18,165 bases of DNA from a virus (IMGVR_UViG_2681813004_000010); one strand, 5' to 3'. Positions 14,401-16,114 are shown, counted from the first letter of the stretch. Numbers and translations are program-made. Notes: generated by a model from the letters alone, not told the origin.

Positions 14401-16114
14401 CAGGCTGCGGCATTTTGTCCGCGCCGGGCTTCGCTCACTGTTCAGGCCGGAGCCACAGACTGCCGTTGAATGGGCGGATGCTAATTACTATCTCCCGAAA
14501 GAATCCGCATACCAGGAAGGGTGCTGGGAAACACTGCCCTTTCAGCGGGCCATCATGAATGCGATGGGCAGCGACTACATCCGTGAGGTGAATGTGGTGA
14601 AGTCTGCCCGTGTCGGTTATTCCAAAATGCTGCTGGGTGTTTATGCCTACTTCATAGAGCATAAGCAACGCAACACACTTATCTGGTTGCCGACGGATGG
14701 TGATGCCGAGAACTTCATGAAAACTCACGTTGAGCCAACCATCCGTGATATTCCGTCGCTGCTGGCGCTGGCTCCGTGGTATGGCAAAAAGCACCGGGAT
14801 AACACGCTCACTATGAAGCGTTTCACCAATGGTCGTGGCTTCTGGTGCCTGGGCGGTAAAGCGGCAAAAAACTACCGTGAAAAGTCGGTGGATGTGGCGG
14901 GTTATGATGAACTTGCTGCCTTTGATGAGGATATTGAACAGGAAGGCTCTCCGACGTTCCTGGGCGATAAGCGTATTGAAGGCTCGGTCTGGCCAAAGTC
15001 CATCCGTGGCTCCACGCCCAAAGTGAGAGGCACCTGTCAGATTGAGCGTGCAGCCAGTGAATCCCCGCATTTTATGCGTTTTCATGTTGCCTGCCCGCAC
15101 TGCGGGGAGGAGCAGTACCTTAAATTTGGCGATAAAGAGACGCCGTTTGGCCTCAAATGGACGCCGGATGACCCCTCCAGCGTGTTTTATCTCTGTGAGC
15201 ATAATGCCTGCGTCATCCGTCAGCAGGAGCTGGACTTTACTGATGCCCGTTATATCTGCGAAAAGACCGGGATCTGGACCCGTGATGGCATTCTCTGGTT
15301 TTCGTCATCCGGTGAAGAGATTGAACCGCCTGACAGTGTGACCTTTCACATCTGGACGGCGTACAGCCCGTTCACCACCTGGGTGCAGATTGTCAAAGAC
15401 TGGATGAAGACGAAAGGGGATACGGGAAAACGTAAAACCTTCGTGAACACCACGCTCGGTGAGACGTGGGAAGCGAAAATCGGCGAACGTCCGGATGCTG
15501 AAGTGATGGCAGAGCGGAAAGAGTATTATTCAGCGCCCGTTCCTGATCGTGTGGCTTACCTGACCGCCGGTATCGACTCCCAGCTGGACCGCTACGAAAT
15601 GCGCGTATGGGGATGGGGGCCGGGTGAGGAAAGCTGGCTGATTGACCGGCAGATTATTATGGGCCGCCACGACGATGAACAGACGCTGCTGCGTGTGGAT
15701 GAGGCCATCAATAAAACCTATACCCGCCGGAATGGTGCAGAAATGTCGGTATCCCGTATCTGCTGGGATACTGGCGGGATTGACCCGACCATTGTGTATG
15801 AACGCTCGAAAAAACATGGGCTGTTCCGGGTGATCCCCATTAAAGGGGCATCCGTCTACGGAAAGCCGGTGGCCAGCATGCCACGTAAGCGAAACAAAAA
15901 CGGGGTTTACCTTACCGAAATCGGTACGGATACCGCGAAAGAGCAGATTTATAACCGCTTCACACTGACGCCGGAAGGGGATGAACCGCTTCCCGGTGCC
16001 GTTCACTTCCCGAATAACCCGGATATTTTTGATCTGACCGAAGCGCAGCAGCTGACGGCTGAAGAGCAGGTCGAAAAATGGGTGGATGGCAGGAAAAAAA
16101 GCGGTGTCTTATAA
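14375..16114 (+). pseudogene. A: terminase large subunit gpA, copy 2, truncated after codon ~575 (fused to E 3' sequence, ends …GRKK-SGVL-stop)
   Basis: MNISNSQVNRLRHFVRAGLRSLF… is collinear with lambda gpA through …[12 protein letters not shown], then reads 4 codons into E-derived sequence and stops. Copy 1 shows the normal continuation (…[16 protein letters not shown]…GEDE), so ~66 C-terminal codons are missing here. Confidence 0.85.
15134..16100 (+). repeat. direct repeat copy 2 (A gene segment), partner at 1-967
   Basis: See copy 1. The repeat ends at the A7 run (16094-16100), where copy 2 diverges into E sequence. Confidence 0.95.

Follow-up and report, generated by a model that had tools for sequence, protein, structure and literature searches.

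The window analyzed here is the entire 18,165-nucleotide viral sequence IMGVR_UViG_2681813004_000010, which an exact-protein look-up identifies as a complete draft contig of Escherichia coli (AOTC01000230.1, assembly GCA_001447405.1). It contains part of a lambda-like helper prophage, a phage satellite inserted into the helper major capsid gene E, and two direct copies of a segment of the helper terminase large-subunit gene A. The satellite is a helper-embedded phage-inducible chromosomal island (HE-PICI) of the E:Phage_cap_E:80 group, a known kind of phage satellite, and the 967-bp repeat formed by the two A segments is that portion of a 2.0-2.5-kb duplicated block of which the contig also carries the original copy. 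We tentatively favor a real in-situ event in which the helper packaging block was copied onto the right end of the satellite.

The duplicated terminase block and its edges

Direct comparison of positions 1-967 and 15134-16100 bears out the initial annotation, which described these stretches as a direct repeat within terminase gene A with a single synonymous mismatch: the only difference is T924/G16057, a change in the third codon position (ACT versus ACG, Thr in both copies), and the similarity breaks off sharply at 968/16101. The two A segments lie in the same orientation at a start-to-start spacing of 15,133 bp (a repeat search seeds the same pair) and, as had also been stated, bracket W-B-C-D-E', the island, cos, Nu1 and the 5' part of A. 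Chance cannot account for a match of this length (967 bp) with a single mismatch. The left edge of copy 1 is the contig end and no biological boundary; the right edge of the repeat is a true sequence junction that connects A nt 1726 to E nt 709. Because the helper's own cos-Nu1-A 5' region in relatives matches window positions ~13634-16100, copy 1 very probably continues upstream of the contig end, as the initial annotation supposed. The features that define the rearrangement are as follows.

1..967, plus strand: repeat copy 1, nt 760-1726 of the helper A gene, collinear with A of E. coli 980-2 and of F2_407_2_2
1..1167, plus strand: 3' part of the intact helper A gene, ending in SGEDE and the natural stop (translation; annotation of homologous loci)
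13666..13677, plus strand: satellite-side cosN, with the lambda cohesive end in its canonical form, GGGCGGCGACCT, between satellite-type flanks
13855..14400, plus strand: chimeric small terminase gene, 5' ~210 nt of satellite type and the remainder of helper Nu1 type (three-way alignments and protein comparison)
14375..16114, plus strand: A', the second copy of A, cut off after 575 codons (nt 1726) and followed by 4 foreign codons (SGVL) and a stop (translation; Pfam GpA_ATPase, GpA_nuclease)
15134..16100, plus strand: repeat copy 2, the final 967 nt of A', the stretch singled out in the initial annotation
16098..16100, plus strand: illegitimate junction between A nt 1726 and E nt 709, with 3-bp AAA microhomology (three-way comparison of A, the window and E)

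The left edge of the copy-2 block appears, from the alignments, to be a homologous crossover within the region of similarity between the satellite cos/terS and the helper cos/Nu1. The satellite cos and the first ~300 nt of terS share 94.5% identity with the helper cos/Nu1 across 529 bp, including an uninterrupted 160-bp identical block in E. coli 980-2, and 3' of this ~300-nt shared stretch terS diverges completely from Nu1. The window is of satellite type at 14 diagnostic positions between 13681 and 14064 and of helper type from 14065 onwards, which places the crossover between 14064 and 14077, with a 12-bp ambiguous zone (14065-14076) when measured against the closest alleles and one of at most 83 bp, extending to 14147, when measured against other satellite alleles. 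A helper allele identical to window positions 13636-14400, which would shift the crossover to the left edge of cos, was sought and not found, the best match being 98.3%. The resulting chimeric protein is effectively the helper Nu1 with a few substitutions. Among 80 related satellite loci, helper homology breaks off at many different points (13699, 13706, 13783, 13831/13840, 13889 and 14162), indicating that exchange at the cos/terS spot is recurrent.

The small terminase of these satellites is itself a natural chimera, in which the first ~100 residues (the DNA-binding half) are nearly identical to the helper Nu1 and the C-terminal half is unrelated (loci compared: window 13855-14400, L001 30273-30824 and L088 18279-18473; the type element of the group keeps just a 64-aa remnant). 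The exact 44-mer cos context of the window occurs in no other satellite or genome searched, viral contigs included, and the best natural satellite match is 98.3%. In the 80 related satellite loci (L007-L086, ~4430-4470), cosN is GGGCGTCAGGCG in 49, the canonical GGGCGGCGACCT in 28 and another variant in two, with the anchor missing in one; in the helpers examined, cosN is canonical. A megablast search of 50,697 deposited phage genomes with the variant satellite cos region produced no match. Ends that are not complementary might prevent the joining or co-packaging of satellite DNA with helper DNA.

At the right edge, A' consists of 575 gpA residues followed by SGVL, so that the C-terminal 66 residues of gpA are missing; the C-terminal end of lambda gpA is prohead-binding. 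The join falls at E nt ~709-712, within the AAA microhomology. Relative to the locus of 980-2, 1,864 bp (the 3' half of terS, the DUF2971 cargo gene, attR and E nt 246-708, a deletion of 463 nt in E) are replaced by 1,938 bp of helper sequence (14163-16100). With attR and the adjacent arm site lost, the satellite cannot excise, and with E nt 246-708 deleted, the helper E gene can never be restored; the rearranged element is probably non-functional. Helper genes captured by a satellite would be expected to lie within its att boundaries and to be able to move with it. Here, the block from Nu1 3' through A' sits at the satellite's late end. With the right att boundary missing, no inside of the element can be defined, and the element has lost its mobility. 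The rearrangement is thus probably a dead end and not a transmissible capture.

Two other explanations for the right junction were considered and discarded. For integrase-mediated recombination at a secondary site, inspection by eye shows no resemblance to the att core on the A side or the E side other than 'AAGC'. For a contig break or a homologous join caused by similarity between the satellite's own capsid gene and E around nt ~709, no such homology was found.

A single helper lineage

The intact F2_407_2_2 prophage is the closest helper for every helper-derived part of the window. Positions 1-4910 are 99.2% identical to it, with the differences restricted to two patches, in B and C (positions 1-1338 contain one mismatch); positions 14065-16100 differ at four positions, one of which is shared with copy 1; and positions 16098-18165 are 100% identical over 2,068 bp. 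Identity of at least 99.7% to copy 2 is found in only ~10 of the 4,104 matching records. Judged by sequence, both arms and the extra copy can be explained by one helper lineage, which speaks for an in-situ origin rather than for the separate acquisition of two prophages. The window has a single set of head genes. The remaining helper genes are as follows.

1164-1370, plus strand: helper head gene W (open reading frame, annotations of collinear loci, Pfam; the same evidence for B, C and D)
1367-2968, plus strand: helper portal gene B
to 4268, plus strand: helper S49 protease/scaffold gene C
to 4610, plus strand: helper decoration gene D
4666..4911, plus strand: E', the first ~245 nt of E, the major capsid gene of the helper, with the attL identity block AAGCCGAAGCA at its end (alignment to F2_407_2_2 E; published attL alignment)
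16101..18165, plus strand: 3' end of E (~315-317 nt, stop at 16415), then FI (16457-16855), FII (16867-17220), Z (17232-17807) and the start of U (identity to F2_407_2_2; Pfam)

The embedded satellite

The type element of the E:Phage_cap_E:80 group is Eco567.11capE of strain NRG 857C (Tommasini, Mageeney & Williams 2023, PMC10111431). As in this group, the island in the window is inserted into a lambda-E-type major capsid gene at codon ~80, with the integrase gene next on the same strand; the alignment to the intact E of F2_407_2_2 stops at E nt 245, that is, window position 4910. The attL block, (a)agccgaagca, and the satellite-side flank are both present, and positions 4867-4966 contain TATGTCAAGCCGAAGCACTTAGCATGGCTTTCTGAGG, the same as in the rows of the published attL alignment. 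The integrase protein is identical to that of Eco567.11capE at 410 of the 412 aligned positions (99.5%). HE-PICI attachment sites are expected to carry a doubled TGTATTGC arm-type motif ~132 bp downstream and ~81 bp upstream from the center of attP (PMC10111431). The window has the attL-side copy only, the attR-side copy having been deleted, whereas 980-2 has a second doubled copy beside attR. An intact attR is likewise absent from the window: E restarts at nt 709, and E nt 246-708 are gone together with the arm motif. The satellite is a member of the HE-PICIs by descent and is mobile no more.

The genes of the satellite follow the zone order of Gram-negative PICIs, namely, integration (int, AlpA), Bro/regulatory, replication (primase, SSB) and late, and the Pfam domains on the contig come in the order Phage_integrase, Phage_AlpA, D5_N/DUF5906/Pox_D5, SSB, Phage_cap_E, HDPD, Phage_AlpA, Phage_Nu1.

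5039..5058, plus strand: the HE-PICI attachment-site arm-type motif, doubled TGTATTGC, ~+131 bp relative to the crossover (0.01 occurrences expected by chance)
5074..13609, plus strand: satellite body (Pfam; match to the 980-2 satellite; integrase match to the type element), comprising the nine genes below
5074-6309, plus strand: integrase
6311-6541, plus strand: AlpA
8016-8219, plus strand: Icd-like
8440-8727, plus strand: DUF4222
8724-10544, plus strand: primase
11074-11511, plus strand: SSB
11823-12863, plus strand: the satellite's own E-like capsid gene
12873-13214, plus strand: the satellite's own decoration gene
13226-13609, plus strand: AlpA-like HTH gene

A perfect 82-bp tandem duplication is located in the satellite SSB gene (window 11322-11485) and causes a frameshift, with loss of the conserved acidic tail at the C terminus (...DDIPF); neither 980-2 nor any of the 80 related satellites examined has this duplication. 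This duplication reflects either decay of a trapped satellite or an artifact of gap closing. Directly downstream of the primase gene (window 10543-10758) are two nested imperfect inverted repeats rich in (A)CTGTTCACC, probably the replication origin of the satellite.

The ancestral arrangement in E. coli 980-2 and other relatives

The complete genome of E. coli 980-2 contains a lambda-like prophage with the order cos-Nu1-A-W-B-C-D-E', a 10.5-kb element, and 'E-FI-FII-Z-U; the element itself reads int-alpA-...-Icd-DUF4222-primase-SSB-capsid-decoration-HTH-cos-terS-DUF2971. Window positions 1-11404 are collinear with this locus at 99.3% identity, and satellite positions 4911-11321 match it (L001 21411-27821) with zero mismatches over 6,411 bp. 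Because this identical satellite ends in terS-DUF2971-attR-'E, the right end of the window is the derived one. Outside the satellite, the flanking helper genes of 980-2 differ from those of the window by 0.7-2% and the right arm by 7-10%. The presence of an identical satellite in an unrelated strain with a diverged helper indicates that the satellite recently moved between different helper prophages. The cargo in the slot between cos and attR varies, with DUF2971 in 980-2 and HEPN plus DUF262 in NRG 857C, and may consist of defense genes.

Internal deletions that fuse the beginning of A to the end of E (A'::'E) occur independently in complete genomes. In strain CUPS03 (L002 18133-18192), A nt 1617 is joined to E nt 442, and in W137 (L003 ~18132), as well as OXA-181, A nt 1557 is joined to E nt 409; in these prophages, W, B, C and D are gone and cos-Nu1 and the tail genes are retained. 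The junctions differ from that of the window, so that these prophages are not descendants of the window locus; their existence shows that remnants of this type can persist. In the Qin-like prophage of E. coli PSJ-16 (L005 20222-24321), the first 267 nt of the helper A gene are joined to the middle of the satellite decoration gene, and HTH-terS (with an internal stop)-DUF2971-attR-'E is retained; the satellite remnant left in this cryptic Qin-type prophage belongs to the same family.

Origin of the second terminase copy

If copying in situ is the correct explanation, the Nu1-like cos/terS of the satellite would have served as the homologous anchor for one-sided recombination, or for a template switch, with the helper packaging region ~15 kb upstream, the partner helper region being on the same or on a sister molecule. 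Helper sequence would have been copied from inside Nu1 through the first 1,726 nt of A, and the new end would then have been joined illegitimately to E nt 709 via the AAA microhomology. An equivalent two-step route would consist of an unequal crossover that generates a 15-kb tandem duplication, followed by a ~14.5-kb deletion. The event would have swapped out the 3' half of the satellite terS, the cargo gene, attR and E nt 246-708. The data show the gene anatomy, the two boundaries and that attR is lost, and they identify both the satellite and the helper lineage; we infer the order of events, the mechanism and the correctness of the long-range linkage of the contig. Packaging of a 15-kb cos-to-cos transducing circle was considered as the origin and rejected: it predicts helper-type sequence immediately to the right of cosN, but the stretch 13681-14064 is of satellite type at 14 diagnostic positions.

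Several observations weigh against in-situ copying and in favor of an assembly artifact. The structure is a singleton in all collections searched: by exact-protein look-up, the A' protein and the chimeric Nu1 protein are each encoded on this contig only; an exact search for the junction 42-mer found it nowhere else in genome, viral and metagenome contig collections; megablast against 5,426 complete E. coli genomes gave no collinear match spanning 13000-15000 or 15800-16400; and none of the 80 related satellites from IMG/VR continues into Nu1 3'/A. The draft contig begins within the repeat. To pass from the satellite into Nu1-A', it runs through sequence that satellite and helper have in common (exactly identical for up to 83-160 bp at the switch point), where an assembler may go astray. 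At 1,938 versus 1,864 bp, the inserted segment is about as long as the one it replaces, as in a mis-filled scaffold gap, and the unrelated 82-bp duplication that frameshifts SSB on this contig only could be a product of gap closing. The single mismatch, which the initial annotation took to suggest two genuine copies, stands as a difference between the two segments; it is, however, weaker evidence for a recent duplication than was assumed because it sits 44 bp from the unique junction and the G allele is a widespread standing polymorphism (exact 91-mer in 384 of 3,212 matching records). The junction-adjacent part is the only part of the repeat that a short-read assembler could phase, so that the identity of the rest of copies 1 and 2 could be a collapsed consensus; the position of the mismatch and the common G allele hint at a second A gene in the genome.

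Under the artifact explanation, a normal composite of HE-PICI and helper would coexist with other lambdoid A/E sequences, possibly a separate prophage with an A'-'E deletion, and the assembler would have taken the wrong branch in the shared cos/Nu1 stretch, or a ~1.9-kb scaffold gap would have been mis-filled with helper Nu1-A. The linkage of the satellite to A', and possibly also the junction at 16100, would then not be real in the cell, and the mismatch would be found where it is, next to the junction, either because the extension-tip consensus is weakest there or because a different A allele shows through. We consider an artifact somewhat less likely than in-situ copying. Assembly by k-mers or overlaps does not make joins with a 3-bp overlap; a normal composite has single copies of E nt 246-708, of attR and of the cargo gene, which should assemble through, so that a break at E nt 709 requires an extra coincidence; the switch zone is just 12 bp (14065-14076) relative to the closest known satellite and helper alleles; and the contig contains no Ns. 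Moreover, a canonical cosN within satellite-type flanks is not producible by graph errors at k of at least 21, which indicates that a real exchange between satellite-type and helper-type sequence occurred in this element. Given that the draft contig begins inside the repeat, the structure is not usable as evidence before it is confirmed at the level of reads, and the caution about a chimeric assembly in the initial annotation was justified.

A history involving two prophages, in which a separate, related lambdoid prophage with an A-to-E deletion recombined with the composite (cos/Nu1 with cos/terS), seems distinctly improbable. Prophages with A'/'E deletions do exist independently (CUPS03; W137/OXA-181), the G16057 allele pre-exists in other A genes, and many E. 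coli genomes harbor several lambdoid A copies, in up to six places per genome. However, this scenario requires two prophages of the rare F2_407_2_2-like lineage in one cell, a lineage to which few records belong by the 99.7% threshold given above; both arms and copy 2 fit that one lineage. Furthermore, the fusion would delete or invert the chromosome between the prophages, a large rearrangement, and the scenario as a whole is no simpler than the in-situ route. The tandem prophages suggested in the initial annotation, or a full tandem duplication of the composite with the window at the joint, have next to no chance of being correct and are contradicted by the contig as sequenced. The direct orientation of the repeats and the position of cos-Nu1-A after the island, as at the start of a second prophage, are what such an arrangement would produce, but copy 2 adjoins the satellite on one side and, on the other, stops at A nt 1726, fused to E nt 709 and followed by FI-FII-Z-U. 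There is one head-gene set, no lysis or early genes lie between the satellite and cos, and the window contains no attR, attP or prophage end.

A bolder form of the in-situ reading is that late-gene capture was caught in the act, the satellite having taken the helper TerS C-terminal domain, most of TerL and the canonical cosN via the cos/terS handle; we give this little credence. If it were true, two compatible cos sites 15.1 kb apart would bracket Nu1-A-W-B-C-D together with a satellite that has its own capsid and decoration genes, the cos-to-cos interval would have the gene content and the rough size of a capsid-forming PICI, and a concrete route would lead from embedded to capsid-forming satellites. 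There is no evidence that the interval between the cos sites moves as a unit.

As the initial annotation stated, the two A copies are a substrate for homologous recombination, but the deletion would not leave a single A gene as was proposed there. Copy 2 breaks off at A nt 1726, where the end of E takes over, so that recombination between the copies would delete positions 968-16100 and collapse the locus to cos-Nu1-A'::'E-FI, a defective prophage lacking the satellite as well as the A 3' end, W, B, C, D and most of E, with an A'::'E product of 575 aa plus SGVL. Collapse via this direct repeat would next produce an A'::'E remnant like those known from other E. coli genomes. Provided that the linkage is real, the rearrangement is a worked example of DNA exchange between a satellite and its helper, with a homologous handle on one side, a microhomology join on the other and the donor in cis, and it illustrates that such exchange can kill both partners: for want of attR the satellite is trapped, and the capsid gene of the helper is beyond restoration.

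Comparison with known systems

The literature already describes this type of island and where it integrates, as well as the idea of late-gene capture; the repeat is a new and so far unique instance of recombination between a satellite and its helper. The survey of HE-PICIs proposed that these satellites capture late genes from helpers, favored by their embedded location, and did not find a near-identical pair of donor and recipient (PMC10111431). The window and Eco567.11capE of the same survey share the site in E (codon ~80), the attL core and flank, the attL-side doubled TGTATTGC motif, the orientation and, besides the 99.5% identical integrase protein, the gene order int-alpA-...-Icd-DUF4222-primase-SSB-capsid-decoration-HTH-cos. 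They part at the right end, which consists of a 64-aa Nu1 remnant, HEPN, DUF262 and attR in Eco567.11capE, of a full chimeric terS, DUF2971 and attR in 980-2, and, in the window, of helper Nu1 3' plus 1,726 nt of A, without attR and with a 463-nt deletion in E. Elongated PICIs, for example Eco6102.18.E_Phage_cap_E_80 (PMC10111431), resemble the window in having helper late genes in the satellite late zone. Unlike in those elements, the putative donor in the window lies 15 kb away in cis at 99.9% identity, but attR is destroyed, such that the capture is not transmissible.

The A'::'E prophages of CUPS03, W137 and OXA-181 have the same genes fused, W-B-C-D lost and cos-Nu1 upstream, which is the structure predicted for the collapsed window locus; they differ in having a lysis module upstream of cos, where the window has the satellite, and in lacking a second A copy. 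In its general form, the rearrangement resembles homology-facilitated illegitimate recombination, reportedly described by de Vries & Wackernagel 2002 for incoming linear DNA in naturally transformable bacteria, in that one edge lies in extended homology and the other is a 3-bp microhomology join. Unlike in that process, the partners in the window were presumably on the same replicon, and the mechanism is deduced from the end product. Finally, capsid-forming PICIs (cf-PICIs) are said, after Alqurainy et al. 2023, to be satellites with terS, terL, portal, protease and capsid genes. The presumed interval from the helper cos to the satellite cos in the window (15,133 bp) would hold the same set of genes along with int, alpA and primase, but, unlike in cf-PICIs, the head genes are the helper's own and are not enclosed by the att boundaries of the satellite, and the captured terL is truncated.

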